64,000 nt of DNA from Bryobacterales bacterium (GCA_965206655.1 CBDBKC010000038.1:831430-895429), one strand, 5' to 3'; numbered from the stretch's first letter, positions 4,201 through 33,050 are shown. The notes: a model not told the origin generated them from the sequence alone. A program made the numbers and translations.

Positions 4201-5846
4201 GCGCCGGCGTAGACGGTCGTCGACATCACGAGCTCTTCGCGGATCGGATCGATGGCGGGGTTCGTGACCTGCGCGAATAGTTGCTTGAAATAATTGAAGA
4301 GCAGTTGCGGGCGGTCCGATAGGCAGGCGAGCGGCGTGTCGATGCCCATCGAGCCGAGCGGCTCCTGGCCCTTGACAGCCATCGGGCCCAGAATCAAGCG
4401 CTCGTCTTCGAGGGTGTAGCCGAAGATGCGCTGACGCTGCAGAAGCGTGTCCCAATTCGTGCCGTGGACCTGCATCGGCTCGGGAAGCTTATCGATGTGG
4501 ATCAGATTCTCATCGAGCCACTGGCGGTAGGGCCTGCGCTTCGCAATGGTCTCTTTGACCTCTTGGTCTTCAACGATGCGGCCTTCTTCGGTGTCGACGA
4601 GAAAGATGCGGCCGGGCTGCAAGCGGCCCTTGAGACGCACATTCTCGGGCGGGATGTCGAGCACGCCGGCTTCGGAAGCCATCACGACAAGATCGTCGTG
4701 AGTGACCCAGTAGCGGTTGGGTCGCAGGCCGTTGCGGTCGAGGACGCCTCCGACGTAGCGCCCGTCGGTGAAAACAACGGACGCCGGACCGTCCCAGGGT
4801 TCCATCATGGAAGCGTGGAACTCATAGAAGGCTTTCTTGTAGTCCTCCATATGAGTATGCGCGTCCCAGGCTTCGGGGATGAGCATCATCATCGAGTGCG
4901 CCGTCGAGCGGCCCGCTTGGATGAGTAGTTCCAAAGCGTTGTCGATCATCGTCGAGTCGCTGCCGGCCTCGTCGATGACAGGCAGGATCTTCTTGATGTC
5001 GTCGCCGAAGAGCGGCGAGGTGAGCGTGGCCTCGCGCGCACGCATCCAATTGATGTTGCCGCGCAAGGTGTTGATTTCGCCGTTGTGCGCCAAGTAACGA
5101 AAAGGTTGAGCGCGCTCCCAGGTCGGAAAGGTGTTGGTTGAGAACCGTTGGTGAACGAGCGCGATGGCCGACTGGAAATCGGAATCGCCCAGGTCGGGAT
5201 AGAAGTTGGGGATCTGGGGGGCGATGAGAAGACCCTTGTAGCAGACAGTGCGCGAAGAAAGGCTGCAGGGGTAGAAGCGCGGGATCTCTTGCTTGAGCGC
5301 CGCCGACTCCATTCGCTTGCGTAGAACGTAAAGTTTACGCTCGAAGCTATCGCCCTCGAGGTGTGCCGTGTCCGCCCCCTTGCCTATGAAAACCTGTTCG
5401 ATCTTGGGTTCGGATTCACGAGCCAGCCAACCAATCGCGCTGCTATCAACCGGCACTTCGCGCCAGCCGAGTAATGTGAGGTCCTCTTCCTCGACGACCT
5501 GAGCGACCATCTGGCGTGCGGCGGTCTGGTCGGCAGGCTTCTTCGAGAAGAAGAGCATGCCGACACCGTATTGACCCTCGACCGGCAGCGTGACTTGGAG
5601 CGACGCCGCCTCACGCCGGAAGAATTGATCTGGGATCTGTAACAACAAGCCCGCGCCGTCGCCTGTATCCGGGTCGCAGCCGCAGGCGCCGCGGTGGGTC
5701 AGATTCACGAGGACTTCAATACCCTGCTGGACGATCTGATGGGAACGGCGGCCCCGAATATCGGCGACGAAGCCGATGCCGCAAGCGTCGTGCTCGCGTT
5801 GAGGGTCGTAGAGACCTTGGCGTTTCGGTAGACCGAACGTACTCAT
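1260..5846 (-). CDS. gltB: Glutamate synthase large subunit
   Basis: 1528 aa. N-terminal amidotransferase Cys (…[12 protein letters not shown]…), FMN/Fe-S central domain and C-terminal GXGXG region; classic GltB architecture. Confidence 0.95.
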
Positions 5847-6104
5847 AGAAAACCTGGGCCTTGCCTATTGCCGGATGCCGATCCCGTCAAACCGTGGGAC
5901 GCGACTACACTTGCTTGCTTAAGCTCGGAGGGACCGAGCCACCTCGTTCCGAAACAAGGTACTCCTCACCGAGGGGTTCTAGCAGAATAACACTCGGCCT
6001 TTATAATAGCAAGCGAAATATGGCTAGATCTTTATTAGACTTTCTAATACAGTAAACCCCGGAAAACAGATCTTATACCATTGCAGACAAATGGTTTACG
6101 GGTG
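5847..6104 (-). promoter_or_regulatory. AT-rich upstream region of the gltBD operon (putative promoter/leader)
   Basis: The only markedly AT-rich stretch for several kb, immediately 5' of the gltB start. Confidence 0.3.
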
Positions 6105-7569: not shown

Positions 7570-8982
7570 ATGTTCAATCCCGTCATCCTTAGCTTTGTCG
7601 GCTTTCTCATTGCGTTCATTCTCATCGGGGCCTACGCCTCGCGGCGCAAGACAGACACCACCGAGGACTACCTGCTCGCCAGCCGCAGCATCGGCCCCTG
7701 GTTCACGGCGCTATCGGCCGTGTCGACGAACAACAGCGGATTCATGTTCATCGGCCTTATCGGAACAACATACACCATGGGCCTGTCGGCCGTGTGGATT
7801 ATGTTCGGCTGGATTTTCGGCGACTATCTGATGTGGTTTTGGATTCATCGGCGTCTCCGTGAAGGGAGCGAAGCGCGGCACGCGCGCACGATCCCTTCAT
7901 TCCTGGCGGCGGAGATGCCTGGCGGACGGCGGTTGGTGCAGGGGACCGCGGCCGTGATTACGCTTACTTTTCTCGGAACTTACTCGGCGGCCCAGTTGAA
8001 TGCGGGTAGCAAGGCTCTGAACGTCCTGTTTGGCTGGCCTTACTCCACGGGCGCTATCGTAGGGGCGGTCATCGTTGTTATCTACTGCTTCGCCGGCGGC
8101 ATTCGAGCCTCGATCTGGACCGACGTTGTGCAATCGATCAACATGCTCTTCGCGGTCTGGCTGCTTTTCGGCCTCGCGCTCTACGAAGTGGGGGGATTCA
8201 GCTCGTTGTGGTCGCAGCTTGAAGCGATCGATCCGCAGCTCATCAATTGGAGCCCGCCGAACCCCAGATTCGGATTGGCGCTGTTTGTCTTCGGTTGGTT
8301 CGGCGCGGGGATTGGGGTCGTTGGGCAGCCGCATATCATGGTTCGCGCGATGTCAATTCGCTCAGGCCAGGACATTGCGAAGGCGCGTGACATTTACTTG
8401 ATCTGGTACCTGCTTTTCACGATCGCTTGCTATGGAGTTGCGCTGGCCTGCCGCATCCTGATCCCGGATGTTGGTGCGTTCGATGCCGAGTTAGCACTTC
8501 CAACGTTAGCGATCGAGTACCTTCCCGGCGTGCTGGTCGGACTCGTGCTCGCGGGACTTTTCGCGGCGACGATGTCGACGGCCGACTCGCAGGTGCTGTC
8601 GTGTTCGGCGGCGCTCACCCAGGACCTGTTTCCTGAATGGAGTGAGTCGTACGCGAAATCGAAATTGGCAACCCTGTTCGTGATGGCCGCAGTTCTGGGT
8701 ATCGCGCTTTTTGCGAGCCAGAATGTTTTTGCGCTCGTTACGCTGTCTTGGTCCGCGCTGGGCGCTTCGCTCGGCCCGCTGTTGATTGTGCGGGCGATGC
8801 GTTGGCCGGTGAATGCCCGGACCGGCTTCGGCATGATGGTCGGCGGCTTGGCGGGCGCGATCGTGTGGGGTAAAGTGCTCGGCTACGGCAACGACCTGTT
8901 TGAAGCGATGCCCGGCTTCCTACTTAGTTTCGCCGTCTATTTGCTGTTGCGCCCGCGTGGCGGACCGCCGACACCTCACTAG
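7570..8982 (+). CDS. Sodium:solute symporter (SSS family) transporter
   Basis: 470 aa with 12-13 TM segments; N-terminal region resembles PutP/SSS family. Confidence 0.75.
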   Translation: MFNPVILSFVGFLIAFILIGAYASRRKTDTTEDYLLASRSIGPWFTALSAVSTNNSGFMFIGLIGTTYTMGLSAVWIMFGWIFGDYLMWFWIHRRLREGSEARHARTIPSFLAAEMPGGRRLVQGTAAVITLTFLGTYSAAQLNAGSKALNVLFGWPYSTGAIVGAVIVVIYCFAGGIRASIWTDVVQSINMLFAVWLLFGLALYEVGGFSSLWSQLEAIDPQLINWSPPNPRFGLALFVFGWFGAGIGVVGQPHIMVRAMSIRSGQDIAKARDIYLIWYLLFTIACYGVALACRILIPDVGAFDAELALPTLAIEYLPGVLVGLVLAGLFAATMSTADSQVLSCSAALTQDLFPEWSESYAKSKLATLFVMAAVLGIALFASQNVFALVTLSWSALGASLGPLLIVRAMRWPVNARTGFGMMVGGLAGAIVWGKVLGYGNDLFEAMPGFLLSFAVYLLLRPRGGPPTPH

Positions 8983-9129: not shown

Positions 9130-10584
9130 CTACCCGCCGGGATAGCGTCGATCAAGCCATGTTTGGAGGTCTTCCATGGATGACCAGTCCGGCTCGTCGG
9201 CGACACCGTAGCCTGGGCGTTGGAGGCTGGCGCAGTTGACCGAGCCGTCTCGTACGTTCAGAAACCACTCATCCCCTCGTTTCGCGTAGAGGTCGGTGTG
9301 GTGGCGGGCGACGGACGCCTTGTCGCCCTCGGACAGCATGGAGAGCCCGTAGTTGTAGTGGTGGCCGTTTCGCTCGCAGTGGTCGATCCCGAGGACGGCG
9401 AGCGAGGCGAAATCTTGATGGAGCGGCACGATCGGCAAATTCTGAAGATCCTCACCGCTCATGAAAGCGGGTTCGCCGAGCCGGTTGTAGTGGGTTACGA
9501 GCGCCCGGTTGAGGAGCGACTTGAAGAAGCCCTTGCAGTTTTTGTGCGATACGCCGCGATAGCCGATCCGATAGGCGTCGCGGTAGCTCGTCAGGCTGCC
9601 GTCGGCCTCGTCGATGAGGAGCGGCTTGCGTTCGGCGATGCGGCGGATGGCCGGCGTGGTTTCCGGATCGAGGGTCAGCGCGCGCGGCAATGGTTGTTCG
9701 ATCCAGAGTAGGTGTTGAAAGAGGCCGAGCTGTTGCTTCTCGAGATCGCCGACAAAGGCCTCGAACTCGGCCAGGTCGTAGTAGGCCTCGTTCGCATCCA
9801 TCGTGACGTGGGCGCCTCGGTTCGCGGGTAGGATTTCCCAGATGCGCGTCATACGCCGCAGGTCTTTCTTCCGGTCGCCGGACAATTTGAGTTTGAAGTA
9901 ACGAAGTCCGTCTTCGCGGATGTACTCTTGCAGGGTTTCGGGCAGGCCGTCGTTCACTCGATCTGACGCGGGCAAATCGTCGCCGGTGAGAGGGTCGGAG
10001 TTGCCCACAGTGTGCCGGATGTGAAATGCCGTGAGCGGTTCGGGGGAGGTGTAGTCGGCGGCTCGCAGTTCCTCTGTTTCCCGGTGGATCTTCTCTGGTT
10101 GGAAACCCAGGCGACCGGCACGGACCATCTCAAAAATCGACTTGCCGGCGAGTCGGCAGACGGCATCGAGCAGTGCCCGCTCAAAAAGAGCGGACGCAAA
10201 GGCTGACGTTAGGGCTTCCTGCTTTCTCTCTTTCCCGGCCTGGGTGATTTTCGGATGCCGGGACCGCCACTCCGCGAATGGTGTTTCAAACTCGTTCGCG
10301 TCCGATAGGTAGATGCCGCGCGCCGCGTAGATCAAGTCCACTAATTCACGAAGCTTCTGACCCTTCTCGCGGCCGGGGCGCTTGTCGAGCCAGCGTACAG
10401 ACAGGCGGTCGGCCGCGCAGCCGAAGGTTTCGTTGCCCTCGGTGTCGCGGATGACCATGCGCACGTGGGCGATGGGGCTCGTCGCGTGGGTGCCCTCGCT
10501 GCCCATGCGGCCGATCGACATCGATACGCGATTGGGCAACGTCTCGCGCATATACAGCTCGATGGTTCGAATGCGATAGGCCAT
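9130..10584 (-). CDS. Enolase-superfamily (mandelate racemase/muconate lactonizing enzyme-like) protein
   Basis: 484 aa. Metal-ligand motifs in order: VTMDANEAY (D), WIEQP (E), LLIDEAD (D). Confidence 0.5.
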   Translation of the reverse strand: MAYRIRTIELYMRETLPNRVSMSIGRMGSEGTHATSPIAHVRMVIRDTEGNETFGCAADRLSVRWLDKRPGREKGQKLRELVDLIYAARGIYLSDANEFETPFAEWRSRHPKITQAGKERKQEALTSAFASALFERALLDAVCRLAGKSIFEMVRAGRLGFQPEKIHRETEELRAADYTSPEPLTAFHIRHTVGNSDPLTGDDLPASDRVNDGLPETLQEYIREDGLRYFKLKLSGDRKKDLRRMTRIWEILPANRGAHVTMDANEAYYDLAEFEAFVGDLEKQQLGLFQHLLWIEQPLPRALTLDPETTPAIRRIAERKPLLIDEADGSLTSYRDAYRIGYRGVSHKNCKGFFKSLLNRALVTHYNRLGEPAFMSGEDLQNLPIVPLHQDFASLAVLGIDHCERNGHHYNYGLSMLSEGDKASVARHHTDLYAKRGDEWFLNVRDGSVNCASLQRPGYGVADEPDWSSMEDLQTWLDRRYPGG

Positions 10585-10596
10585 GACTTGTGATCT

Positions 10597-11433
10597 CTAT
10601 TGTCCGCCAAGAGGTGCGACCAGACGGCGGAAAGTTTCGCCGGCCTCGAATGGGTCGTCTTGTGCGGCGGCGGCTGCCCTATTGAGCAGCCAGTGTTTCG
10701 GGTCGGGTCCGCATGGCAAACCTGGGAGTTGTGTTTCGTGGCAACTCAGGGCCGCCGCCTGAGTGTCGAGATAGCCGCTCACGTCGACAATCGTTCCCGG
10801 TTCATCGGAATCCCACAGAAGAAGCTCATGAACCTTGTGTGGCTCGAGCCCTTGCCGGATGTGTTCGGGGAAATGCAGGCGGTCGCGGACATAGGGGTAG
10901 GTCGCGTCCTGCACAACGATGCCGGCGATGCGATGGTCGCGATGAGAGAACCCGCGGCGGCGGTAGGGGTCGTGGGTGAGAACGGTCTCGGGGCGATGCC
11001 TGCGGATGAGCTCGACGATGCGGCCTCGAAATTCGACCGTGTCGTCGAGGCCGCCATCGGGCAAGCCCAGCATGACAAGCTCGCGAACACCGAGCCGGCA
11101 GGCGGCGGTTTGCTGCTCGGCGAGCCGAATGCGAGCAACGTTGGCGGGCGTGAGTGCCGGTTGGGCTGTGCCGGCGGCGCCATTGGTGCAGACGACAAGG
11201 GTCACTTCACATCCGGCGGTGATCCACTTCGCCAGCGTGGCGCCGGCGTTGAGTTCGGCGTCGTCGGGATGAGCCGACACGGCCATAGCGCGCTGCGGGA
11301 TAGAGTCGAGATGTTCGAAACGGGGCATGTCCAGAACAAAGTACCCTGAAGCTTTCCCATGGTAGATTGTTTGTCCGAACTCCATGATGACAGCCCCGCG
11401 GTGAAAGACGTTAAACCCCCCACCGATGCGCAC
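10597..11433 (-). CDS. PIG-L/LmbE-family N-acetylglucosaminyl deacetylase (MshB/BshB-like); true start likely internal
   Basis: AHPDDAE signature (MAVSAHPDDAELNAGATL…). Divergent from the GT4 gene. Confidence 0.7.
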   Translation of the reverse strand: MRIGGGFNVFHRGAVIMEFGQTIYHGKASGYFVLDMPRFEHLDSIPQRAMAVSAHPDDAELNAGATLAKWITAGCEVTLVVCTNGAAGTAQPALTPANVARIRLAEQQTAACRLGVRELVMLGLPDGGLDDTVEFRGRIVELIRRHRPETVLTHDPYRRRGFSHRDHRIAGIVVQDATYPYVRDRLHFPEHIRQGLEPHKVHELLLWDSDEPGTIVDVSGYLDTQAAALSCHETQLPGLPCGPDPKHWLLNRAAAAAQDDPFEAGETFRRLVAPLGGQ

Positions 11434-12667
11434 ACCTTTACGAATCGCTGTCCTCAGTCTTCATACCTGTCCACTTTCACGGCCCGGTACGCGGGATTCG
11501 GGCGGCATGAATGTGTATGTTCGGGAAACGGTGCGCGTGATGGCGTCAAAAGGCGTACTGGTGGACATATTCACCCGCAGGCATGGCGGCGCGGATGAGG
11601 ACGTCGCCCTCGGAGTCGGTTGCCGACTGGTGCATATCGAAGCGGGCCCGCCGGATATAGCCAAGGGCGATCTGGCCCCCTGGCTGGCGAGTTTCGTGCA
11701 AGGTGTGGAGGAGTTTGCTCGGCGCACCGGCGGCGCCTATGACGGGGTGGTGAGTCACTATTGGCTTTCGGGGCTGGCGGGGATTCGTCTGCGGGATTTG
11801 TGGGGCGGCCGGCATGTAGCGGGTTTGCACACCTTGGCCGTGCCGAAGTCACGGGCGTTCCCCCACGATGCTGTGATGCCGGCACGCGTCGCCGGCGAAC
11901 GGCTCGTTGTGAAAGAGGCGGACGCACTATTGGCAGCAACCACACACGACCACGAAGCGCTGGTGGTGGACTATGGGGCGGACGAAAAACGCATCGTGGT
12001 TGCTCCGCCGGCTGTGGATACGGCACGGTTCCGTCCGCGGGATCGAGAGACTTGCTGCCGCCGGTTGAGACTCTCGGCGGAGGGCCACCGGCTTCTCTTC
12101 GTCGGCCGGACGATTCCACTGAAGGGTATTGAAGTGCTTTTCGAGGCTCTATCGCTGATGACGCCCGACACGTCGGCGGTTGTTGTCGGGGGAGAATTAA
12201 ACGGCCATGAGCACGAGTTATTGGCGGCCGCGGCACGGCGACTCCGCGTGGTTGAGCGTGTCACGTTTGCGGGCAGTGTTCCTCACCAGCACTTGCCGTT
12301 GTACTACGGGGCGTCCGATGTTTGTGTTCTGCCTTCGTATTACGAGAGCTACGGACTGGCGGCGTTGGAGGCTCTGGCTTGCGGCCGGCCGGTCGTCGCT
12401 TCAAAGGTGGGGGGACTAGAGTCGGTGGTGAACCACGGTGTCAATGGATTCCTGGCGTCACCCGGTTCGCCGGAAGAATTTGCGAAGGCGATTACGACTC
12501 TACTCAGCGACCAGGACCTTTGTCGTTCACTGGGCCTGGCGGGCGTCAAGAGCGCACGGCATCGCGGTTGGGCACAAACGGCCGAGAGGATTCTCGGATG
12601 CTTGGTGGACCCGGCCCCGGCCGCTCGTTCGGCGCTCGATGCATCGGTGGCCATCGCTCGGTCATGA
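11426..12667 (+). CDS. GT4 glycosyltransferase, MshA-like (D-inositol-3-phosphate GlcNAc transferase-like)
   Basis: N-terminus …RIAVLSLHTCPLSRPGTRDSGGMNVYV… matches the MshA signature; C-terminal GT-B EX7E region. Confidence 0.75.
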   Translation: MRTPLRIAVLSLHTCPLSRPGTRDSGGMNVYVRETVRVMASKGVLVDIFTRRHGGADEDVALGVGCRLVHIEAGPPDIAKGDLAPWLASFVQGVEEFARRTGGAYDGVVSHYWLSGLAGIRLRDLWGGRHVAGLHTLAVPKSRAFPHDAVMPARVAGERLVVKEADALLAATTHDHEALVVDYGADEKRIVVAPPAVDTARFRPRDRETCCRRLRLSAEGHRLLFVGRTIPLKGIEVLFEALSLMTPDTSAVVVGGELNGHEHELLAAAARRLRVVERVTFAGSVPHQHLPLYYGASDVCVLPSYYESYGLAALEALACGRPVVASKVGGLESVVNHGVNGFLASPGSPEEFAKAITTLLSDQDLCRSLGLAGVKSARHRGWAQTAERILGCLVDPAPAARSALDASVAIARS

Positions 12668-13506
12668 TCGAGGTCATCTTTCTTGATCTTGACGAGACGC
12701 TCGTCGCCCAGGAGCAAGCTTTCGAACGCGCCTACCAGGCGGTGGCGCGTTTGGCCGCGGACCTTTCCGGAATTGATGCCTTCTCGTTCGCGCAAGCGGT
12801 TCCGGCGGCGGCGGATGCTTGTTTCAACGGGTTGGGAACGGCCGAATTTGTACGGCGTTGCCGGTTTGGGGGACGAGATGTGCTCTGGGGCGATACGAGA
12901 GTGGGGGAAGCACCGGGAGAAGCGGGGGCGGATGCCGCGGAATCGCTGCGCAAGCTCGACGAGGAGGTCGGAGGATATCGTCTGGCGGCTTGGTCGCATT
13001 TGCTGGAAGAGTTCGGGGTTCGCCCCGGCTCGCAACAAGAGGAGATACGCGGTTCGCTTGATGCATGCTTCCGGCGGGAGATGGACGCGGGGATTGAGGC
13101 GTTCCCCGACGTCGTTCCAGCGCTTGAGCGGTTGAGCAGGAGCTACCGTTTGGGAGTCATCACGAACGGTTTGCCGCTGGGTCAGCGGAGGAAACTCGAG
13201 CGATTGGGGATAGCTCGGTATTTCGAAACGCTGGTGGCTTCAGCCGAGGTGGGAGTCGGCAAACCGGATCGCGAAATCTTTTGTAGGGCGCTGAGCCGAA
13301 TGCGAGTTGCCGCCGGTGACGCCTTGATGGTCGGAGATAGTCTGGAGGGGGATGTGCTTGGCCCGCAACGGGCGGGGATGAAAGCTGTTTGGCTGCGGCG
13401 CGGAGATTACAGCGGGGCAGGGTGCGCGAACGAGGTTCCAGTCGCGGCGGATCTTCAGGAGTTGGAGGCTGTGCTGAACTCGGTTTCACTCAGTTCGGCG
13501 CTGTGA
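12664..13506 (+). CDS. HAD-superfamily hydrolase (phosphatase)
   Basis: Motif I FLDLDETL at N-terminus; …VGDSLEGD… motif IV. ATGA start/stop overlap with the GT4 gene. Confidence 0.7.
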   Translation: MIEVIFLDLDETLVAQEQAFERAYQAVARLAADLSGIDAFSFAQAVPAAADACFNGLGTAEFVRRCRFGGRDVLWGDTRVGEAPGEAGADAAESLRKLDEEVGGYRLAAWSHLLEEFGVRPGSQQEEIRGSLDACFRREMDAGIEAFPDVVPALERLSRSYRLGVITNGLPLGQRRKLERLGIARYFETLVASAEVGVGKPDREIFCRALSRMRVAAGDALMVGDSLEGDVLGPQRAGMKAVWLRRGDYSGAGCANEVPVAADLQELEAVLNSVSLSSAL

Positions 13507-14840
13507 ATACGCGAGCGGTGGTACGGGGCTTGTGGGGTCTGGCGGTTAGCGCGGACCGACCGGAGGCGGAGATCGTGGCCTACCAGGAGGCTTGCCTGCG
13601 TCAGTCGGTCCGGCACGCCCACGCGAAGGTTCCCTATTATCGGCGGTTGTTGGATGAGGCGGGCGTCGATCCCCGCGGGATTCGCCGGCTGCGCGACCTC
13701 GCATTGATTCCCGTGACGTCGCGCGAAGACATTCAGTTGTTGTCCGCCCCTGACCTTTGTGCTCGGGACGTCGATGTCAACACATTACGGATGCTTCAAA
13801 CCAGCGGATCGACGGGAGCGCCTCTTACTGTTCGCCGCACACCTTGGGAGGAGCAGTTGATGCTCGCCTATCGGGTTCGAACGTACGTCGACCTTGGCTG
13901 GGATCTCCACTGGCGGAGGGCCGCCATCGACTACTACACACCGGAGACGTTGCGGGCGGAGGGCGGTGTCCAGGTGCATGATCGGCTTGGGATTTTGCCC
14001 CGGCTCTTGATTGACTGGCGAACCCCGAAGAGCCGCATCATCGACAAATTGGCGAAGTTTCGTCCTCACGCTGTGAGTGGACCTCCGTCGATTCTTTCGT
14101 GGCTCGCGGATGAGTGGACGGAAGAAGACCGGCGGCGGGTTCCCCTGCGAATGGTGATAGCGGGGGCCGAGACCCTCACTCGGGATATGCGTCGGCGGAT
14201 CGAGCGGGGTTTCGACGCGCCCGTTGGGGATGTCTACGGTTGCCATGAAACGGTCTTCATAGCGATGCGGGGACCGTCGCAAACTGCCCATCGGGTGTGC
14301 CGGGACGCGGCGATCGTCGAAGTGCTTAGGGATGGCAAGCCGGTGGGGCCCGGGGAATCCGGTGAGATCTTCGTGACAGCTTTGCATCTTTTTGCGATGC
14401 CATTTATTCGATACCGAGTGGGGGACACCGTGAGGGTGGGGGCGGTAGCGGGCGAAGGGGATTCGGTATCGGAGTTGACATCGATTGACGGACGGGTGAT
14501 GGACCGCTTCTTCCTTCCGGGGGGACGGGAGCTACATCCGTACGCGTTAGGTGACGCGATTCAGGACAGCGGTTTAGCCGTTCGGCGCTTCCAGATCGTG
14601 CAAGAGAGGCGCGATTTGTTTCTGGTGCGGATTGTGTTGCCCGAGGATGCCTGCGACGAGACGGCTCGAGTGGAATGTTTGGAAAGGCGGGTTCAGGAGA
14701 TTCTGGAAGGCGGCACGAGCGTGCGGCTGGAAGTTGTGAGGTCCCTGGCGCCGAGCGAGGGGCGTAAGTTTCGGCCGTATGTTCCCGTGGAGTCTTTATG
14801 CGGAGAAGATAGCTTTTCTGTCCCCTCATCTCATGGCTAG
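13503..14840 (+). CDS. Adenylate-forming enzyme, phenylacetate-CoA ligase (PaaK)/F390 synthetase family
   Basis: TSGSTGAPL P-loop-like AMP-binding motif. GTG start overlaps the HAD stop (GTGA). Confidence 0.6.
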   Translation: MNTRAVVRGLWGLAVSADRPEAEIVAYQEACLRQSVRHAHAKVPYYRRLLDEAGVDPRGIRRLRDLALIPVTSREDIQLLSAPDLCARDVDVNTLRMLQTSGSTGAPLTVRRTPWEEQLMLAYRVRTYVDLGWDLHWRRAAIDYYTPETLRAEGGVQVHDRLGILPRLLIDWRTPKSRIIDKLAKFRPHAVSGPPSILSWLADEWTEEDRRRVPLRMVIAGAETLTRDMRRRIERGFDAPVGDVYGCHETVFIAMRGPSQTAHRVCRDAAIVEVLRDGKPVGPGESGEIFVTALHLFAMPFIRYRVGDTVRVGAVAGEGDSVSELTSIDGRVMDRFFLPGGRELHPYALGDAIQDSGLAVRRFQIVQERRDLFLVRIVLPEDACDETARVECLERRVQEILEGGTSVRLEVVRSLAPSEGRKFRPYVPVESLCGEDSFSVPSSHG

Positions 14841-14939: not shown

Positions 14940-16554
14940 ATGACCAAATCTCGTCAGCCTAAGAATCGCGCCCGCCTCAGCCGCCGTGATGTTTTTCGGG
15001 GGAGCAGCGTGGCCGCGGCCGGCCTTCTCGCCGGCTCCACCCCAGCCGGGGCCGCGCGTATGCCCGCTTCGCCCGATGTTTATACGCGCATCGGCGTTAA
15101 GCCTTTCATTAATCTCACCGCCGCCGTCACGATCAACGGTGGCTTGCTAACGTTGCCGAACGTCAAGGAGGCGATGGAGGAGGCGTCGCATTTTTCCGTC
15201 AATATGGATGAGCTTCTCGAGGCGGTGGGCAAGCGGCTGGCTGAACTCTTTCAATGTGAAGGAGCGATGGTCGCCTCCGGTGCGGCGGGGGCGTTGACCC
15301 ATGCCACGTCGGCCTGTCTAGCCGGCGGCAACCCCGAGCGCATCCGGCAACTCCCCGACCTGACGGGCCTGCGCAGCGAAGTCATCATGCCTCGTCCTTC
15401 ACGGAACATGTACGACCACGCTATCCAAGCGCTGGGCATCACCATGACTACCGTCGACACGCGCGAGGAATTCCACCGCGCCCTGAGCCATGACACCGCC
15501 TTGATCGCCGTCCTCGGCAACGCCGAATCGCGCAGCGAGATTCGTCTCGAAGAAATGGCGGAGGCGGGACGCAAGTATGGTGCGCCTGTCGTTGTCGATG
15601 CCTCGCCGGAATGGCCTCAATCGCCGGACCCCTACCTGGAGCGAGGCGCCGATTTGGTTGCCTACTCGGGCGGCAAAATTTGCGCCGGGCCTCAGTGCAG
15701 CGGATTCCTAATCGGCCGCAAAGACCTTATCTACGCCGCGCGGATGAACAGCGCGCCGCATCATTCCTTCGGTCGCATGATGAAAGTCGGCAAAGAAGAA
15801 ATCATGGGCGCACTCGTGGCCGCCGAATATACGTTGGGCGAGCGCAGCCACGCGAACGAAGTCGCGAAGTGGACCGGCTGGCTGCGCCGTGTGGATGCCA
15901 AAGTCAAGCAGGTTCCCGGTGTCAAGACCACACTGAAGCCGCCCCCCGGCAAGAACCCTCATCCCGTACTCGACGTCGAATGGGACGCTGAGCGCATTGG
16001 CTACACGGCAGGCGAACTGCACGACCTATCTCATGTCGACCGAGCCGCGCATCCAGACCCATGCCGCGGGAGAGGGGAATTCTTTCCCGATTCGGATCGG
16101 TAATTGCCGCGAGGATCAAATCGACGTCGTCGCCAACCGCCTTGCCGAGGTCCTTCGCAATGCACCGAAGCCGAAGCCGAAACGCGAAGCGCCGCCCGCG
16201 GCTGATATCTCGGGACGCTGGGACGCGGAACTCACGTTTACTCCGGGGTCTGCCCGGCACACTCTGCACTTTGAAGCCAAGGGCAATAAGCTCAACGGGA
16301 CGCATGGCGGCCAACGCGGCAGCGGTGAACTTTCCGGCACGATCAACGGCGATCGCGTGCGGTTCCGAAGCCAACTGATCCACGATGCCGAGCGCACCGG
16401 CTACAGTTTCCACGGGCGGCTCAACGGCAACGAAATCACGGGCGATCTCCACTTGGGAGAATACGGTAAGGCGCGCTTCAAAGCGTGGCGTCACGAGTAT
16501 GGCCGCCCGGTGCGGGAAGATCCGTCCGTTTCGGGAAAGACGGGAAAGGTCTGA
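14940..16554 (+). pseudogene. Tat-exported SelA-like (fold-type I PLP) enzyme, paralog 1, interrupted by a single-nucleotide frameshift near 16030
   Basis: RRDVFR Tat motif. Homology to paralog 2 continues from frame 1 (…GYTAGELHDL) into ORF 15997..16554 (…TEPRIQTHAAGEGNSF…DISGRWD…). Confidence 0.6.
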
Positions 16555-16588
16555 AGCACATTCCAGGAGCATCAAGAAAGGTTTTGAA

Positions 16589-18142
16589 ATGAAGAGTCAC
16601 CTCAGTCGTCGGCGCTGGATGCAGTCCGGCGGTATTGCGAGCGCCACTGCCCTTCTCCAAGCCGCGGGGGCGACGCCGTTGTCTGCTGCCCCGGTGGAAG
16701 AGCCGCCGCCCGACGTCTACACGAAGCTCGGCGCCAAGCCGTTTATCAATTGCACGGCGACTATCACGCGCAACGGCGGTTCGCGCCAGCTTCCCGAGGT
16801 GATCGAGGCCATTCATCACGCCGGCCACTATCACGTGAACCTTGACCAGCTGATGGAGTCCGCGGGCAAGCGCATCTCCGAGTTGCTCAAGGTGGACTGG
16901 GCGATCGTCACTTCCGGCGCCGCTGCCGCTCTCGCCCACGCCACGGCTGCGTGTGTCGCCGGAACCGACCCCGAGCGGATGCAACAGCTTCCGGACCTGA
17001 CGGGCCTCAAGAACGAGGTCATCATACCGAAGTCGTCGCGCAATGTTTACGACCATGCAGTCCGCATGGTGGGTGTAAAGATTGTCGAAGTCGATTCCGC
17101 GGAGGAACTTCGCGACGCCATCAACCACCGCACCGCGATGATCGCCGTTCTCGGCGACCGCTTCAACAACAACGTCCGCCTACCGCTGAAGGAAGTTGGA
17201 CCGATAGCGAAGCAGGCCGGCATTCCGGTTCTCGTGGATGCCGCCGCGGACTATCTTGTCGTTCCCAATCCCTACATCGCACAGGGGGCGACCCTCGTTG
17301 CCTCTTCGGGCGGAAAAATCCTGCGCGGTCCGCAGACGGCCGGGCTGCTCGTCGGAGACGAAAAACTGATCCGCGCCGCGTTCGCGAACGCCGCCCACCA
17401 TCACGCATTCGGACGGCCGATGAAGGTGAGCAAGGAAGAGATTGTCGGCATGACCACGGCCGTTGACGTTTTCATCAACAAACGCGACATCCAGGCTGAG
17501 TACCGTGAGTGGGAAAGTTGGTACGACTACATCGACAGGGAAATCACGAAGGTTGACGGCGTTTCGACAACGCGTTCGGGCCCCTCGCGGGGCGGTCCCT
17601 TTCCTGTCCTATCGATCGAGTGGAACCCAAAGAAGATTGCTTTGACAGCGGGCGAAGTCGGTGAACTCTTGCTTAACGGTGAGCCCAGCATTGGCTCACA
17701 TGCCGAGGGAGATGGTCACTCCTTCCGTCTACGCCCCGTCGCCATGAAGCCCAACGAATACCAAGTGGTCGCCGAGCGTCTTCACTCCCTCTTCCGTAAC
17801 GCACCCAGCAGCGCGGACAAGCCGAAGATCCGCCCGCCGGCGACGGATATTTCGGGCCGCTGGGATGTCGAAATCTCGTTCCAGCTTGGCGCCTCCGAGC
17901 ATTTGCTGTTTCTTGAAGCCGACGGAAATGACGTGCGGGGAACCCACTTCGGCACAGTCAAGAGAGGGCAAGTCGAGGGAACGATCGACGGCAACAAAGT
18001 CCGTCTCAAAACGAGCTTGCCTTTTGAGGGCGCGAACCTCAGCTACATCTTCGAAGGCCGTGTCAACGGTAATCAGATGGAGGGCAGCTTGGACTTGGGC
18101 GAATATCCCAATGGAACATGGAAAGCCCGCCGCCACGTTTAG
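16589..18142 (+). CDS. Tat-exported SelA-like PLP-dependent enzyme, paralog 2, with a ~100 aa C-terminal extension domain
   Basis: MKSHLSRRRWMQSGG Tat signal; …GAKPFINCTATITRNGG… SelA/DgaE-like core; C-terminal DISGRWDVE…G..G..G domain shared with paralog 1. Confidence 0.7.
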   Translation: MKSHLSRRRWMQSGGIASATALLQAAGATPLSAAPVEEPPPDVYTKLGAKPFINCTATITRNGGSRQLPEVIEAIHHAGHYHVNLDQLMESAGKRISELLKVDWAIVTSGAAAALAHATAACVAGTDPERMQQLPDLTGLKNEVIIPKSSRNVYDHAVRMVGVKIVEVDSAEELRDAINHRTAMIAVLGDRFNNNVRLPLKEVGPIAKQAGIPVLVDAAADYLVVPNPYIAQGATLVASSGGKILRGPQTAGLLVGDEKLIRAAFANAAHHHAFGRPMKVSKEEIVGMTTAVDVFINKRDIQAEYREWESWYDYIDREITKVDGVSTTRSGPSRGGPFPVLSIEWNPKKIALTAGEVGELLLNGEPSIGSHAEGDGHSFRLRPVAMKPNEYQVVAERLHSLFRNAPSSADKPKIRPPATDISGRWDVEISFQLGASEHLLFLEADGNDVRGTHFGTVKRGQVEGTIDGNKVRLKTSLPFEGANLSYIFEGRVNGNQMEGSLDLGEYPNGTWKARRHV

Positions 18143-18532: not shown

Positions 18533-21214
18533 ATGGTCGGCCAAACCATCTCGCATTACCGCATCACCGAGAAGCTCGGCGAAGGCGGGATGGGCGTTGT
18601 CTATAAAGCTGAAGACACCAAGCTGGAACGCCCCGTTGCCCTCAAGTTCCTCGCCCCGCACGCCATCGAAGACCCCGAACACAAAGCTCGCTTCGTCCGG
18701 GAAGCCAAGGCCGCGGCGCGCCTGGATCACCAGAACATCTGCTCGGTGTACGAAATCGACGAGGCCGACGGGCAAACCTTCCTCGCCATGGCCTTCCTCG
18801 AAGGCCAAACCGTCAAGGAAAAAATCGCCGAGCGGCCCTTGAAGCTGGAAGAGGCCCTGGACATCGCCATCCAAACGGGGCAAGGACTCGAGGCCGCACA
18901 CGAAAAGGCCATCGTCCATCGCGACATCAAGAGCGCCAATTTGATGCTGACCTCGCAGGGTCAGGTCAAGATCATGGACTTCGGCCTGGCGCAGCTTGCC
19001 GACCGCAGCAAGCTCACCAAGACGACAACCATGCTGGGGACCCCCGCCTACATGTCCCCCGAGCAAGCCCTCCGCGAGCCCACGGACCATCGTACCGACA
19101 TCTGGCCTCTTGGGGTGATGCTCTACGAGATGCTGACGGGACATCTGCCCTTCGAGGGTGAGCGCGAGCAAGCGGTGCTCTATGCGATCACCAACGAGGA
19201 GCCGGAGCCGGTCACCGCTCTGCGCAGCCGCCTGCCGACCGAGCTCGATCGCGTACTGGGCAAGGCGTTAGCGAAGGATCGAGACGAGCGCTATCAGCAC
19301 GCGGATGAGCTATTAGTGGATCTCAGGGTGCTGCAGAAGCAGAGCGGTGAGACGAAGCCTTCCCGAGCGGTCGCCGCGGTTGATGCGCCAGGGCCTAGCG
19401 TCGCGCCGAAAGTGGAACCATCTTTGCCAGAGCCGACACAAGCGCCCGCGAAGCCTTGGACCCGCTTCGCCCTCCCCGTCGCAGTCGGCGCAGCGACGGT
19501 CTTCTTCGCCCTCTGGGTGATGGAGCGGGCCGAGCCCGAGCCGGAGCGGCCGGTGCGCAAGTTTACGCTCGAAGTCACCAACGCCGAGACGCCGGAGATC
19601 TCGCCCGACGGCCGGAGCATCGTGTATGCCGCGGGAGACGGTCTCTACGTCCGCAAGCTGGCGGACTCCGAGCCGCGACTGCTGGTTGACAACCTAGTCC
19701 GCCAAGGCTTCGGCGCCCGCCCGTTCTGGTCTCCCGACAGTCGCTCGATTGGCTTTGCGTCGGACGGGGTTCTTTTCCGCATCGATGCCGATGGCGGGAC
19801 TCCCAGGCGCCTGTGCTCGGTCGGCGTCTTCGGGGGAGGAAGCTGGAGCCCCGACGGCGAATCGATCGTTTTCACCAACTTTCGGGTACTATACGAAGTT
19901 TCCGCCGGTGGCGGGCGTCCCAAAGTCATCGTACGCGGGTCCGATGTCGATTTACCGGACCGCCGGGTCCTGACTCGTCCCCGCTTTTTGCCGACGACAC
20001 CCGACCGCAGGATTCTCGCTTACCAGATCGGCCAAGGGGCCACGGGACTGACGCTCGTCGTTCACGACCTCGATGATGGCGAGCCCGTGGCTCTCGGCAA
20101 GTGCCATCTCACCTTCGGTTACTCTCCTCCCGGACTCTTTCTGTATCCGGGCATGGAAGGGAGTTCGAGGCTCTGGGCGCTGTCGTTTTCGTTGGAGGAC
20201 CTGACGGCCAAAGGCGAGCCGTTTCCCGTCTACCCCGAAGGCGCATGGCCGTCCGTCTCGACCGATGGGACCGCCGTCTTCGTCACCGGGAACGCACAGG
20301 TGCTCAGTCCACGGCAGCTCATTTGGCGTTCTCGCGACGGAGTCAGGCTGGAGGCGGCCGGGCCCCCGTCGCCGATCCTAGACGCCCCTGAGCTATCCCC
20401 CGACGGCCGCCTCGCACTTGTCAACGACGGAATGCGTCCCGCCGTCGTTGACCTGAAACGCAACGTTATGAGCCGGCTGACGTCTGACGATGTTCGAGCC
20501 AACTCCAAACAGTGGACGTCTTCCGGGGTCGTTTTGGACCATCAATCGTCTCCCGCGAATCCCCAGACGGGCTTGTACCTGGTTCCTCACGATCAAAGCG
20601 CCACCCGCAAGCTCCTCGCGAAACTCGACCGAAACGCGATGGTGATCGACGCTACCAACGACGGGTCCATCGTGTACGCCTTTGAACACGAGGACTCCCC
20701 GGGGGTGGCCGATGAGATCTACCTGTTGGAGGTGCGCGCCGACGGAAGCTTCAACGAGGCGAGGAGGATTTTGAGTACGGTTCCGGGGGTGAGCGAGCTT
20801 CAAGTCTCCCCTGACGGTGAGCTGGCCGCGCTTGTAAGGGTCACGGACTACCAGGGCCGGGTCTACGTCCAAGCCTTTCCGGAAGGCGGTGCGAGCGTTC
20901 TCGTTTCAGCGAGTGGCGGCGAGGACGTCCGGTGGAATCCCCTCGGCGGAGAGCTCTTCTACATCGAGGGCGAGACGCTGATGTCTGTCGAGATCAAGCG
21001 GGGCGAGGATGGGAGCGTCGAGGTCTCGATTCCCCGACCGCTTTTCAGCGACCGCAACTTTCTCAACAGCCGCGTGACGCACAGCGCCATGTATGACGTC
21101 GCCCCCGACGGCTTGAAGTTTCTTGTCGTCGAGGCGGCGGAACCCGATCCCGAGGCCAGGTCTCAGATCCGTGTCGTCGAAAACTGGTACGAAGAGTTCC
21201 GCGACCGCGAGTAG
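18533..21214 (+). CDS. Hanks-type Ser/Thr protein kinase with TM segment and C-terminal TolB-like (PD40/WD40) beta-propeller
   Basis: GEGGMGVVYKA…ALK, HRDIKSANL, DFG, APE motifs; C-terminal repeats SPDGRSIV/SPDSRSIG/SPDGES. Confidence 0.85.
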   Translation: MVGQTISHYRITEKLGEGGMGVVYKAEDTKLERPVALKFLAPHAIEDPEHKARFVREAKAAARLDHQNICSVYEIDEADGQTFLAMAFLEGQTVKEKIAERPLKLEEALDIAIQTGQGLEAAHEKAIVHRDIKSANLMLTSQGQVKIMDFGLAQLADRSKLTKTTTMLGTPAYMSPEQALREPTDHRTDIWPLGVMLYEMLTGHLPFEGEREQAVLYAITNEEPEPVTALRSRLPTELDRVLGKALAKDRDERYQHADELLVDLRVLQKQSGETKPSRAVAAVDAPGPSVAPKVEPSLPEPTQAPAKPWTRFALPVAVGAATVFFALWVMERAEPEPERPVRKFTLEVTNAETPEISPDGRSIVYAAGDGLYVRKLADSEPRLLVDNLVRQGFGARPFWSPDSRSIGFASDGVLFRIDADGGTPRRLCSVGVFGGGSWSPDGESIVFTNFRVLYEVSAGGGRPKVIVRGSDVDLPDRRVLTRPRFLPTTPDRRILAYQIGQGATGLTLVVHDLDDGEPVALGKCHLTFGYSPPGLFLYPGMEGSSRLWALSFSLEDLTAKGEPFPVYPEGAWPSVSTDGTAVFVTGNAQVLSPRQLIWRSRDGVRLEAAGPPSPILDAPELSPDGRLALVNDGMRPAVVDLKRNVMSRLTSDDVRANSKQWTSSGVVLDHQSSPANPQTGLYLVPHDQSATRKLLAKLDRNAMVIDATNDGSIVYAFEHEDSPGVADEIYLLEVRADGSFNEARRILSTVPGVSELQVSPDGELAALVRVTDYQGRVYVQAFPEGGASVLVSASGGEDVRWNPLGGELFYIEGETLMSVEIKRGEDGSVEVSIPRPLFSDRNFLNSRVTHSAMYDVAPDGLKFLVVEAAEPDPEARSQIRVVENWYEEFRDRE

Positions 21215-21625: not shown

Positions 21626-22810
21626 TCAGGCGGCGAGAGAGGGCGGCGAGTGGATGCGCAGCTCCGCGGCACTGAAGAGCTTGGCGAGCCGCATAGGCTC
21701 GCCGCAACGAGGACAGACCCAGCCACTGCGAGAGGGTTCGGCATCCGAGTAGGAGATGGTGCGCGAGGGGTTGACGCGGGCGATGAGCCGGCGGCACAGC
21801 GGTAATAGGTCGCCGCGTTTCGAGTTTGTCAAGAAGCCGAAGTAGCGAATGCGGTGGAAGCCGCTGGGCAGCACATGCAACAGGAAGCGGCGCAAGAACT
21901 CGTAAAGCGTGAGCGTCAGCAGCCGTTGTTGGTTGCCATGTGCCGAATCACGCCAACGGAAGGTGACCTGGCCTTGCTCGAACGAGACCAAACGCTGGTT
22001 CGAGATCGCCACACGGTGGGTGTAGCGGCTCAGATACTCAAGCGCCCGCCCCGCTCCACCGAAGGGCGGCCGGACTTCGACCACCCACTTGTCGCGGTAC
22101 AAGGTCCGCACAAAGGCCTTGAAGTTGCGCGGTTGATTCAGCGGCGCGAAGCGCCCGTGGAAGCGTAGCTCGCCTGCGGCGAAGGCTTTCTTGAGACCGT
22201 CGATGAACTTACCGCGAAAGACCTCGGCGAGGACGTCCTTGGGCAGGAAGAAGTTCTTCGAGGGTGCGTCGATCCAACGGCTGTGGTCAAGTGCGAGGCC
22301 ACCGGCGGGAACGACCGTATGGACGTGGGCGTGTTCTTGGAGGCGCTGATTCCAGGTGTGCAGGATTGAGAGGAAGCCGATCTTGGCGCCAAGATGGCGG
22401 GGATCACGAGCGACTTCGAGCAGCGTCTGTGCGCTCGCTGTGAGCAGCAGCGAGTAGATCGCATCCTTGTTCTGTAAGGCCAGCTGCGAGAGCACGCGCG
22501 GCAGCGTGAAGACGACGTGCAGATAGCGCACCGGCAGCAGTTCTTTGCGGCGAGCCTCCAGCCAATGCTTCCGTGTGCCGGCCTGGCACTTGGGACAATG
22601 CCGATTGCGACAGGAGTTGTAAGAGATGGCGGTCTGATAGCCGCAATCGCTGCACTCGTCGAGATGAGCACCGAGCTCGGCGGTGCGGCAACGGGTGATC
22701 GCCAACAGCACTTTCAGATGCTGCCGGTTCAGCCAGCCGCGACTTGTCTCGACGAAACGCTCTCCGGCGGCGCGAACCAGATCGGCCACCTCCAGCGGCG
22801 GCCGTGGCAT
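21626..22810 (-). CDS. tnpA: IS91-family transposase (HUH Y2)
   Basis: Zn-finger CxxC…CxxC N-terminus, HTWNQRLQEHAHVH (HUH), YLSRYTHR tyrosine motif. Confidence 0.85.
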   Translation of the reverse strand: MPRPPLEVADLVRAAGERFVETSRGWLNRQHLKVLLAITRCRTAELGAHLDECSDCGYQTAISYNSCRNRHCPKCQAGTRKHWLEARRKELLPVRYLHVVFTLPRVLSQLALQNKDAIYSLLLTASAQTLLEVARDPRHLGAKIGFLSILHTWNQRLQEHAHVHTVVPAGGLALDHSRWIDAPSKNFFLPKDVLAEVFRGKFIDGLKKAFAAGELRFHGRFAPLNQPRNFKAFVRTLYRDKWVVEVRPPFGGAGRALEYLSRYTHRVAISNQRLVSFEQGQVTFRWRDSAHGNQQRLLTLTLYEFLRRFLLHVLPSGFHRIRYFGFLTNSKRGDLLPLCRRLIARVNPSRTISYSDAEPSRSGWVCPRCGEPMRLAKLFSAAELRIHSPPSLAA

Positions 22811-23737
22811 CTAGCTCGTCCCGGGATCGTCGGGTGACAGGTCTTCTCGAGAGAAGGAGGCCAACCCCAACGAGTCCAGGGGGCTGGCGACCCCGCTGAA
22901 GTGGCGCGCCGACAAGTGCAGATAGACCGCCGTCTGCTCCAGATCGCGATGCCCCAGCAGCATCTGGATGGTACGCAAATCGGCGCCGGCTTCGAGCAGA
23001 TGCGTGGCGAAGCAATGACGCAGGATGTGAGGGTGGGCGGGTTTCGTGATGCCGGCCCTGTGGGCGGCGTGGCTGCAAGCGAGCCAGGGCACGTTGCTCG
23101 TGATCGGATCATCGCCGTTGTGCCCCTTCCCTCCGGGGAACAGCCACTGCTTGGGCCTGCGCCGCAGTCGGCGCATGTGCTCGCGCAAGTGGACCAGCAA
23201 ATGCTCGGAGAGCATCACGTCGCGGTCTTTACGGCCCTTGCCGCCGCGAATGTGGACCGCCATGCGTTCCGAATCGATGTCGTTGAGCCGGAGCTGCGTC
23301 AGCTCGGCTCGGCGCACCCCGGTGGCGTACAGCGTCATCAAGATCGTGCGGTGGAAGACGCTGTCGGCGGCGTCAATCAACCGCGCCACTTCCTGTTGGG
23401 ACAGAATGCTCGGCAGTCGGCGCGGCTTCTTCGGGTAGGGCGTCAGGCTGAGGTCCCAACTCCTCCGCAGCGTCTTGAAGTAGAAGAACCGCAGCCCCGT
23501 CAGGCGTTGTGCCACGCTGTTGGCGGCCAGCTTGCGGTCGCGAAACAGGTGGGCTTGGTACTGGCGGATGTGCTCGGGCCCCAACCGGTCGGGCGACCGT
23601 CGGTGGTAGAGCGCGAAGTCTTCGACCGCGTCGATGTAGCAGCGAATCGTACTGACCGCGTAGTTGCGACGCTCGAGCTCTTCGAGCATCTGTCGGCGTA
23701 AACGTGTCATGGGACACCTCCTTGAGTGGTGTCCCAA
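22811..23737 (-). CDS. Tyrosine recombinase (phage-integrase/XerD-like) associated with the IS91 element
   Basis: R…HxxR…Y catalytic pattern (…HILRHCFATHLLEAGADLRTIQMLLGH…AVYLH). Confidence 0.85.
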   Translation of the reverse strand: MGHHSRRCPMTRLRRQMLEELERRNYAVSTIRCYIDAVEDFALYHRRSPDRLGPEHIRQYQAHLFRDRKLAANSVAQRLTGLRFFYFKTLRRSWDLSLTPYPKKPRRLPSILSQQEVARLIDAADSVFHRTILMTLYATGVRRAELTQLRLNDIDSERMAVHIRGGKGRKDRDVMLSEHLLVHLREHMRRLRRRPKQWLFPGGKGHNGDDPITSNVPWLACSHAAHRAGITKPAHPHILRHCFATHLLEAGADLRTIQMLLGHRDLEQTAVYLHLSARHFSGVASPLDSLGLASFSREDLSPDDPGTS

Positions 23738-31129: not shown

Positions 31130-31202
31130 TCGGATATAGCTCAAATGGATAGAGCATCAGGCCATAACCTGACTGTCACGGGTTCGAATCCCGTTATCCG
31201 CC
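31130..31202 (+). pseudogene. Degenerate tRNA-like gene (canonical D- and T-arms, but 6-nt anticodon loop 'ccauaa' and U1·C72 mismatch); possibly a decayed tRNA-Met/Ile2
   Basis: Manual fold: GCUC-AAAUGGAUA-GAGC D-arm, ACGGG-UUCGAAU-CCCGU T-arm, no CCA; anticodon stem UCAGG/CCUGA closes only 6 nt. Confidence 0.35.
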
Positions 31203-32740: not shown

Positions 32741-32816
32741 GCAGGGTTGGTGTAAGCGGGCAGCATGGCGGATTCCAAACCCGCCGGTGGAGGTTCGAGG
32801 CCTTCACCCTGTGCCA
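32741..32816 (+). tRNA. tRNA-Trp (anticodon CCA)
   Basis: Manual cloverleaf: acceptor GCAGGGU/ACCCUGU, G73, encoded CCA, T-loop UUCGAGG; anticodon stem has one mismatch. Confidence 0.65.
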
Positions 32817-32859
32817 GAAGTTTGTGGTCTTTGACAACCGAATAGCCGTAAGAATTCGT

Positions 32860-32934
32860 TGCGGGATAGCTGGAGTGGCTCCAGTCCGGTCTCATAAGCC
32901 GGTAAGGGCGGTTCGATTCCGCCTCCCGCAACCA
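32860..32934 (+). tRNA. tRNA-Met (anticodon CAT; elongator or Ile2-type)
   Basis: Acceptor UGCGGGA/UCCCGCA, anticodon loop CUCAUAA, T-arm GGCGG-UUCGAUU-CCGCC, CCA encoded. Confidence 0.75.
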
Positions 32935-32950
32935 TTTTCGGAACAGGAAG

Positions 32951-33050
32951 GTGTGAAGAAATCGGGACTGTCACAAGCGCGGGCCAAAGCACTCGCCGGT
33001 TCGCAAGCGCTGACTGAAGCGCGGTTGACTGTCCCAGCATTTTTTCGCAC
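32951..33050. repeat. MITE-like palindromic element, copy 3 (diverged)
   Basis: gggactgtc … gactgtccc with aaa/ttttt flanks. Confidence 0.55.

Follow-up and report, generated by a model that had tools for sequence, protein, structure and literature searches.

One locus of a Bryobacterales bacterium raises the question of what is made by four closely packed genes that encode a PIG-L/LmbE-family deacetylase, an MshA-like glycosyltransferase of family GT4, a HAD-IA phosphatase and a PaaK-fold ligase (positions 10597-14840 of GCA_965206655.1, CBDBKC010000038.1:831430-895429, a stretch of 64,000 nucleotides that was analysed as a whole and is called the window here). A first-pass annotation had taken these genes for a cluster that makes an amino-sugar conjugate by the logic of mycothiol synthesis, and as a whole this reading is supported by our comparisons of the predicted proteins. 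We consider it fairly probable that the four genes specify a soluble, cytoplasmic four-enzyme pathway to an N-acylated glucosaminyl-inositol, a pseudodisaccharide of the mycothiol type, and we infer the function of every step from homology, conserved residues and gene context.

In the proposed pathway the GT4 enzyme would move N-acetylglucosamine (GlcNAc) from UDP-GlcNAc onto inositol (Ins) phosphate to give GlcNAc-Ins-P, the HAD-IA phosphatase would strip off the phosphate to leave GlcNAc-Ins, the PIG-L deacetylase would free the 2-amino group to give glucosaminyl-inositol (GlcN-Ins) and the ligase would adenylate a carboxylic acid, maybe an amino acid, and couple it to the amine of GlcN-Ins, with N-acyl-GlcN-Ins as the product. 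Mycothiol chemistry has the same order of GT4, phosphatase, deacetylase and ligation (PMC6178380), and steps 1-3 of the module would mirror MshA, MshA2 and MshB. The gene map, drawn from a listing of open reading frames together with Pfam and NCBIfam profile searches, has all the genes named in the first-pass annotation in place (Table 1), and the sequence bears out the couplings that it described, ATGA between GT4 and HAD and GTGA between HAD and ligase. The deacetylase gene, for which a GTG at 11433 would be an alternative start (278 aa), is divergent from the other three genes. The gap that separates it from the GT4 gene is presumed to be a control region shared by the deacetylase and the GT4 operon; a promoter and terminator scan gave nothing above the shuffled expectation, and a sigma-70-type consensus was not found. 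Membrane-like hydrophobic stretches were found in none of the four module proteins.

Related loci were collected by looking up GT4 homologues and one ligase homologue as exact proteins, and by ligase-seeded scans of species-representative genomes and metagenomes. A PIG-L gene divergent from GT4-(HAD)-ligase genes occurs, always in the same order, at 13 distinct loci including the window (window/L001, L010, L011, L003, L006, L007, L075, L076, L077, L078, L085, L087 and L160), with GT4 proteins that are from about 44% to 84% identical to that of the window; in six further GT4/ligase pairs the two genes come from contigs of equal length and are therefore probably located on the same contigs. The deacetylase gene lies divergently upstream of GT4, and the ligase gene is present, at 13 of 13 loci. 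The HAD gene is intact at 12 of them, the thirteenth (L160), which is flanked by transposases, keeping a 61-codon remnant (L160:7819-8004). The PIG-L gene of L006 (7587-8072) looks frameshifted, its reading frame diverging after about 140 residues, and both this gene and the HAD remnant look like signs of module decay. The flanking genes vary from locus to locus and are unrelated, as seen in a gene-neighbourhood comparison of 12 loci, and because the arrangement recurs at 13 loci with unrelated flanks, the module is not a chance neighbourhood. This strict synteny and the inositol-phosphate synthase gene that adjoins the L075 module back the logic of glycosyltransferase, phosphatase, deacetylase and ligase that had been put forward. 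The extent given for the cluster, 9130-14840, had to be corrected: the enolase-like gene and the orthologue of the window symporter recur only in L010, the closest relative, and therefore the conserved unit is 10597-14840, with both of these genes outside. The two named carriers of the module are metagenome-assembled genomes (MAGs) of Acidobacteria, and the other carriers are uncultured.

The public gene prediction starts the GT4 protein at M28 (position 11507; P0001, 386 aa) and so drops 27 conserved N-terminal residues (11426-11506), with loss of the conserved first strand and the Gly-rich loop; the homologues P0002 and P0004 (386 aa each) carry the same truncation. The ATG at 11426 restores the segment MRTPLRIAVLSLHTCPL..., and we took it as the start because the N-terminus of Corynebacterium glutamicum MshA (CgMshA) aligns with this segment residue for residue and because P0003, a 70%-identical homologue, also has it. 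The N-terminal motif ...PGTRDSGGMNVYV... from which a likeness to MshA had been proposed is present at residues 20-32, and the likeness was supported by profile, sequence and predicted fold. TIGR03449 (MshA) is the top curated family over the full length, with 324 bits against 115 for the next family, and among other NCBIfam models BshA gives 96 bits and sucrose-phosphate synthase (SPS, TIGR02472) 73 bits; on TIGR03449 the orthologues in the other module loci score 339-351 and CgMshA, the control, 711. Among solved structures CgMshA is the top match both by sequence (3c48/3c4q, 231 bits) and by fold (3c4q, closed form, TM 0.86/0.91 to an AlphaFold (AF2) model of pLDDT 93), followed by the SPS of Thermosynechococcus (TeSPS, 6kih; 180 bits, TM 0.86/0.89), and BshA matches the model more weakly (TM about 0.77, 17-20% identity). 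In a neighbour-joining tree of 122 GT4 sequences, which holds a single actinobacterial reference and from which the split can be neither dated nor rooted, the window protein stands within the MshA-like family and CgMshA falls among environmental sequences; a hand-picked clade of 11 members was monophyletic only after 10 more matches had been added. A role in a defence system, considered because of a match to Pfam GT4-conflict, was rejected, as this match reaches 43 bits only and overlaps generic GT4 domains.

The residues of the active site were compared in the alignment of the same 122 sequences, in which GGMN 26-29, Y112, H135, T136, R154, R228, K233, E307 and E315 show no or almost no variation and K80 is mostly kept. 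As tested for a GT-B/GT4 enzyme, CgMshA H133, R231, K236, E316 and E324 are matched by H135, R228, K233, E307 and E315. K80, Y112, T136 and R154 align with CgMshA K78, Y110, T134 and R154, which we take to be ligands of the acceptor inositol phosphate, and K80 and R154 align in addition with R105 and R178 of TeSPS. These two TeSPS residues bind the phosphate of sucrose-6-phosphate (PMC7264703). Because K80 and R154 match phosphate-binding positions, in agreement with the phosphatase gene that follows GT4, the acceptor is almost certainly phosphorylated; since both positions are conserved in SPS as well, they indicate a phosphorylated acceptor and not inositol specifically. Inositol phosphate is the acceptor we favour because of the MshA-type loop, the ranking of the profiles and locus L075. 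Directly beside the L075 module lie a gene that scores 439 bits on the inositol-3-phosphate synthase model TIGR03450 ('mycothiol_INO1'), below the cut-off of 638 bits yet with TIGR03450 as the sole family matched, and a gene encoding a GNAT-methyltransferase fusion (4618-6066).

Several points weigh against an inositol pathway of this kind. The GT4 protein is below the equivalog cut-off for MshA (324 vs 462.5 bits) and is only 37% identical to CgMshA as compared with 33% to an SPS, so that a non-inositol acceptor is possible; the inositol-phosphate synthase gene is adjacent to the module in only one of the 13 loci; we infer GlcNAc as the donor solely from the co-occurring deacetylase; the HAD gene has been lost from L160; and a cultured carrier was not found among the module loci. 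The same enzyme logic could serve another phosphorylated acceptor, such as fructose-6-phosphate, glycerol-3-phosphate or 3-phosphoglycerate, and lead, in the style of SPS together with sucrose-phosphate phosphatase (SPP), to an N-acyl-glucosaminide of a sugar or of glycerate resembling a compatible solute. Sucrose is classically made by such a pair, a GT4 synthase with a phosphorylated acceptor and then a HAD phosphatase (PMC7264703), TeSPS, at 31% identity, is a near-equal fold match, the phosphate-binding positions common to SPS and MshA do not discriminate, and the single locus with a synthase gene suits this alternative too. However, the loop reads GGMN as in MshA and not GGQN as in TeSPS, the 73 bits on TIGR02472 compare with a cut-off of 576 and with 324 bits on the MshA model, the phosphatase is of type IA and not of the SPP type, and an inositol-3-phosphate synthase gene does adjoin the L075 module; moreover, the module adds a deacetylase and a ligase, and among known pathways of the SPS type there is no role for a deacetylase. 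We regard a different acceptor as unlikely and keep inositol phosphate.

For the second step, the HAD protein matches Pfam Hydrolase and HAD_2, scores 52 bits on the HAD-IA model TIGR01549 (cut-off 23.3) and has complete phosphatase motifs (D8-x-D10-x-T12, T167, K200 and D225/D230). Its cap insertion carries a conserved and subfamily-specific motif, RRCRFGGRD (residues 64-72). When a library of 1.84 billion representatives was searched exhaustively with HMMER, 30 proteins came out at E <= 1e-30, and only eight of the best 150 representatives have the RRCRFGGRD motif; judged by sequence, the phosphatase is a member of a small dedicated subfamily. N-acylneuraminate-9-phosphatase is among its nearest solved relatives. 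For the third step, the deacetylase scores 106 bits on Pfam PIG-L (PF02585; cut-off 28.2), and its motifs AHPDDAE (residues 38-44), already seen in the divergent gene by the first-pass annotation, and HRDH (148-151) are conserved across all orthologues. The description of this protein as an MshB-like deacetylase stood as far as the PIG-L enzyme is concerned but not for the likeness to MshB: the top NCBIfam model is BshB1 (TIGR04001, 101.6 bits, under the cut-off of 182.5) and, among solved structures, LnmX (91 bits), an archaeal diacetylchitobiose deacetylase (84 bits) and BshB1 (44 bits) are all nearer than MshB (36 bits), which points to a generic member of the PIG-L family.

The fourth enzyme, which had been described as a non-orthologous ligase, is of a class unrelated to MshC, since it has a PaaK fold of the ANL superfamily and MshC is CysRS-like. 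It carries the P-loop TSGSTGAP (100-107), the A5 motif YGCHE (245-249), the A8 motif RYRVGD (303-308) and the A10 lysine K422; its family profile scores 146 bits against PaaK1, and the AF2 model (pLDDT 91) has PaaK1/2 as its top Foldseek matches (E 1e-30), with BT_0428, HCL (2-hydroxyisobutyryl-CoA ligase), AjiA1, NatL2 and ClxA as further ones. With PaaK-family ligases, including the non-CoA enzymes NatL2, AjiA1 and ClxA, it thus shares the fold, a helical microdomain at the N-terminus and the full set of ANL motifs; it differs from them by a score far under the PaaK equivalog cut-off (TIGR02155, 99 vs 646 bits) and by the proposed nucleophile, which would be the amine of an amino sugar, and its identity to solved members is at most 24%. 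AjiA1 and NatL2 are PaaK-family enzymes of benzoxazole biosynthesis whose mechanism departs from that usual for CoA ligases (PMC8388817). The module-linked ligases group in a distinct subclade, marked by its own conserved C31, C86, R96, D143, W172 and K176, of which R96, D143 and K176 are charged. Relatives that share 30-45% identity are frequent in Acidobacteriota, Gemmatimonadota, deltaproteobacterial MAGs, Brocadiia and others, and distant relatives often adjoin genes for Mur-ligase-like, pre-ATP-grasp, methyltransferase or GNAT proteins. From these neighbourhoods and from the stand-alone members of the subclade, the wider PaaK/CapK-like family has the look of tailoring enzymes that form amides or esters, one branch of which has been recruited to the module.

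To the points already raised against the proposed pathway are to be added that L012, L082 and L090 hold close relatives of the ligase (at least 50% identity) with no GT4 or HAD genes, that distant relatives are found in different contexts without GT4, HAD or PIG-L neighbours, and that the enzyme may be no more than a plain acyl-CoA ligase. It would then supply an acyl-CoA with which GlcN-Ins is acylated by a separate acyltransferase encoded elsewhere, for example a GNAT protein, or else the ligase would belong to an unrelated pathway and the unit would consist of the first three enzymes. The fold and the top matches, which are the CoA ligases PaaK1/2, BT_0428 and HCL, are as expected from such an enzyme, and so are the relatives that lack GT4 or HAD neighbours and the GNAT-methyltransferase fusions beside the ligase in L075 and in L012 (2158-3579), where a fusion of the same kind follows the ligase. 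By contrast, the ligase gene shares an overlap with the HAD stop codon and is missing from none of the 13 loci, the GNAT gene is adjacent in only one of these 13, the module-linked subclade has conserved polar residues of its own, and neither paa catabolic genes, of which none was found in any module locus, nor other genes for acyl-CoA consumption are conserved nearby. We give a CoA ligase, or a three-enzyme unit, a low probability and retain direct N-acylation by the ligase.

Other features of the ligase neighbourhoods were recorded. Many loci, both those with the GT4 module and those lacking it, have a GNAT-methyltransferase fusion or a methyltransferase alone beside a ligase homologue (for example at L047:11260-12114). 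There is a weak match of the ligase to NCBIfam DVU_1553 and of the methyltransferase to DVU_1556, and the same pairing occurs in an uncharacterised gene set of Desulfovibrio; full-text searches of the literature on the function of CapK-type ligases and on the DVU_1553-1556 system brought up no relevant account. In five of the 12 compared loci a sulfatase gene is situated no more than 10 kb from the module (L006:1998-4190, L085:5749-7182, L011:12406-14577, L078:15-2111 and L087:1649-2977), and another is directly upstream of the stand-alone ligase of L012 (31-810); possibly this just reflects sulfatase-rich genomes.

The GT4 enzyme and the PIG-L enzyme are also the first two enzyme types in the synthesis of the glycosylphosphatidylinositol (GPI) anchor, and this likeness would be in keeping with a role of the module in the cell envelope, either in a capsular or exopolysaccharide (EPS) glycan, made with a generic GT4, a CapK-like ligase and a deacetylase, or in a lipid of the GlcN-phosphatidylinositol type. 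Some orthologous ligases match Pfam CapK_C, ligase homologues elsewhere adjoin sugar-nucleotide and polysaccharide genes, and a Polysacc_synt gene is located 3.6 kb from the L075 module. Yet genes for a flippase, a polymerase, a chain-length protein or a priming transferase are not conserved around the module, its proteins are free of membrane-like segments as noted above, and the GT4, with a dedicated phosphatase after it, has kept the residues for binding a free phosphate group. A grouping of the GT4 with cell-wall or lipid glycosyltransferases, which had been set beforehand as a check, was not seen; the GT4 models of EPS and lipopolysaccharide synthesis score no higher than 98 bits, as compared with 324 for MshA. 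An envelope product is, in our estimation, very improbable, and the soluble inositol glycoside remains preferred.

MshA-like GT4s also form a larger sister group, the members of which are 44-47% identical to the window protein, score 375-392 bits on TIGR03449 and stand in another conserved context, in which an Acetyltransf_6/FemAB-like gene is followed by GT4 and PIG-L genes, without HAD and without the PaaK-like ligase (L159:6993-9935, L158:3040-5333 and L008:8001-9962). Genes for homoserine dehydrogenase, GTP cyclohydrolase I or ribosomal proteins lie beside these loci, and the source names include Gemmatimonadota and Chloroflexota/SAR202. The FemAB-like context may represent another non-orthologous N-acylation of a glucosaminide.

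Among known systems, mycothiol synthesis (MshA, MshA2, MshB, MshC as well as MshD) is like the module in the order of its chemistry and in a GT4 that is the closest by profile, sequence and fold. It is unlike the module in its hosts, as the module host is acidobacterial and the other carriers are uncultured, in the deacetylase (36 bits to MshB) and in the ligase, with PaaK/ANL against the CysRS-like fold of MshC; neither the window, 64 kb long, nor any module locus was found to hold a CysRS-like MshC or the GNAT protein MshD. Moreover, the four module genes are clustered, whereas the msh genes of actinobacteria are dispersed, and a phosphatase can be identified in the module, whereas to our knowledge the MshA2 gene has no assignment. 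Published accounts name MshA2 merely as 'a phosphatase' (PMC6178380, PMC13156731), and a genome survey reports complete msh pathways only in Actinobacteria (PMC6282198). Were the acid of the fourth step cysteine or another acid with a thiol group, the pathway would end in a mycothiol-like low-molecular-weight thiol (Cys-GlcN-Ins or a derivative), which some Acidobacteria and allied uncultured lineages would make convergently, with a phosphatase and a ligase that would both be non-orthologous to the actinobacterial enzymes. The GNAT-methyltransferase fusions linked to the ligase in L075 and L012 would fit such a thiol as MshD/NmbA-like tailoring enzymes, and the sister GT4 and PIG-L pairs with a FemAB-like gene would be a third variant of the theme. 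We nonetheless rate a thiol as a minority prospect, rather unlikely within the more general N-acyl-GlcN-Ins scheme.

Bacillithiol synthesis (BshA, BshB and BshC) likewise combines a GT4, a PIG-L enzyme and a ligation onto GlcN, the top family of the window deacetylase is BshB1, and bacillithiol genes have been reported in Acidobacteria (PMC6282198). The module differs from it in that the GT4 gives 95.7 bits on BshA (TIGR03999, cut-off 273.7) with the weaker fold match given above, in that BshA uses malate, a non-phosphorylated acceptor for which no phosphatase is required, and in that a BshC-type protein is absent. In aminoglycoside synthesis, pseudodisaccharides are formed by a 2-deoxystreptamine GlcNAc transferase and an LmbE-type deacetylase (NeoM/NeoL type), that is, by an MshA-like GT4 and a PIG-L deacetylase that yield a glucosaminyl-cyclitol as proposed here; unlike in the module, the acceptors are non-phosphorylated and a phosphatase is unneeded, and the module is without genes for a cyclitol aminotransferase or dehydrogenase. 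The module proteins thus stay below the membership cut-offs for MshA, BshA, BshB1, SPS and PaaK, and full-text searches of the literature found no published description of this gene combination.

Table 1. Coordinates of the module and its immediate neighbours in the window
Feature	Position	Strand	Remarks
Sodium:solute symporter, PutP/PanF-like	7570-8982	+	470 aa; Pfam SSF
Divergent enolase-superfamily protein, MLE-subgroup-like	9130-10584	-	484 aa; Pfam MR_MLE_C
PIG-L/LmbE-family metal-dependent de-N-acetylase	10597-11385	-	262 aa from ATG at 11385; Pfam PIG-L
Divergent intergenic gap, deacetylase/GT4	11386-11425	.	40 bp, read from sequence
MshA-like GT4 retaining glycosyltransferase	11426-12667	+	413 aa
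HAD-IA phosphatase	12664-13506	+	280 aa; ATG overlaps GT4 stop as ATGA
PaaK-fold (ANL superfamily) adenylate-forming ligase	13503-14840	+	445 aa; GTG overlaps HAD stop as GTGA

The enolase-superfamily enzyme and the symporter that had been described as adjacent to the cluster are indeed there, but neither is part of the conserved unit. The enolase-like protein scores 32 bits on MR_MLE_C, just over the cut-off, matches the dipeptide epimerase 3rit (E 0.002) and has the motifs KLK 231-233, D263, E296, D325 and K348/351, with a spacing that we take to be MLE-like; it was rejected as a pathway member, as among the loci examined it occurs only in the window and in L010. The symporter scores 205 bits on SSF and 276 bits on PutP (cut-off 515) and has an orthologue of 89% identity in L010. 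It was rejected as well, only distant SSF genes being present near other modules (29% identity in L078, another subtype in L006), and its link to the module is doubtful.

Downstream of the ligase, the window carries on the + strand three paralogous genes for SelA/DgaE-like pyridoxal-phosphate (PLP) enzymes (14940-16103, 16385-18142 and 25973-27265) of the D-glucosaminate-6-phosphate ammonia-lyase family, all of them far under its cut-off. The first two proteins have twin-arginine-like N-termini (SRRDVF and SRRRWM), and the first gene, 100 bp after the ligase, is conserved at that place only in L010. Further along, an IS91-type transposase gene (Y2_Tnp and Zn_Tnp_IS91) directly beside a tyrosine recombinase gene (21626-23737, - strand) lies downstream of a Ser/Thr-kinase/beta-propeller gene (18533-21214), and some 23 tRNA genes, all in + orientation, are densely arrayed in a stretch without long open reading frames (32741-36551, and 31130-31202). 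An Acido-Lenti-1 small RNA (Rfam RF01687) at 477-522 on the - strand (43 bits, gathering score 37) fits an acidobacterial source.

Glucosaminyl-inositol chemistry, as in mycothiol, is regarded as an actinobacterial hallmark. The compact operon described here, conserved in Acidobacteria and other uncultured bacteria, predicts an undescribed family of inositol glycoside conjugates, and the module offers a defined candidate phosphatase for the GlcNAc-Ins-P step. If the proposed pathway is true, the PaaK fold would be extended to the N-acylation of an amino sugar, and, should the acid be cysteine, a new candidate would be at hand for the major thiol of phyla whose redox buffers are poorly known.

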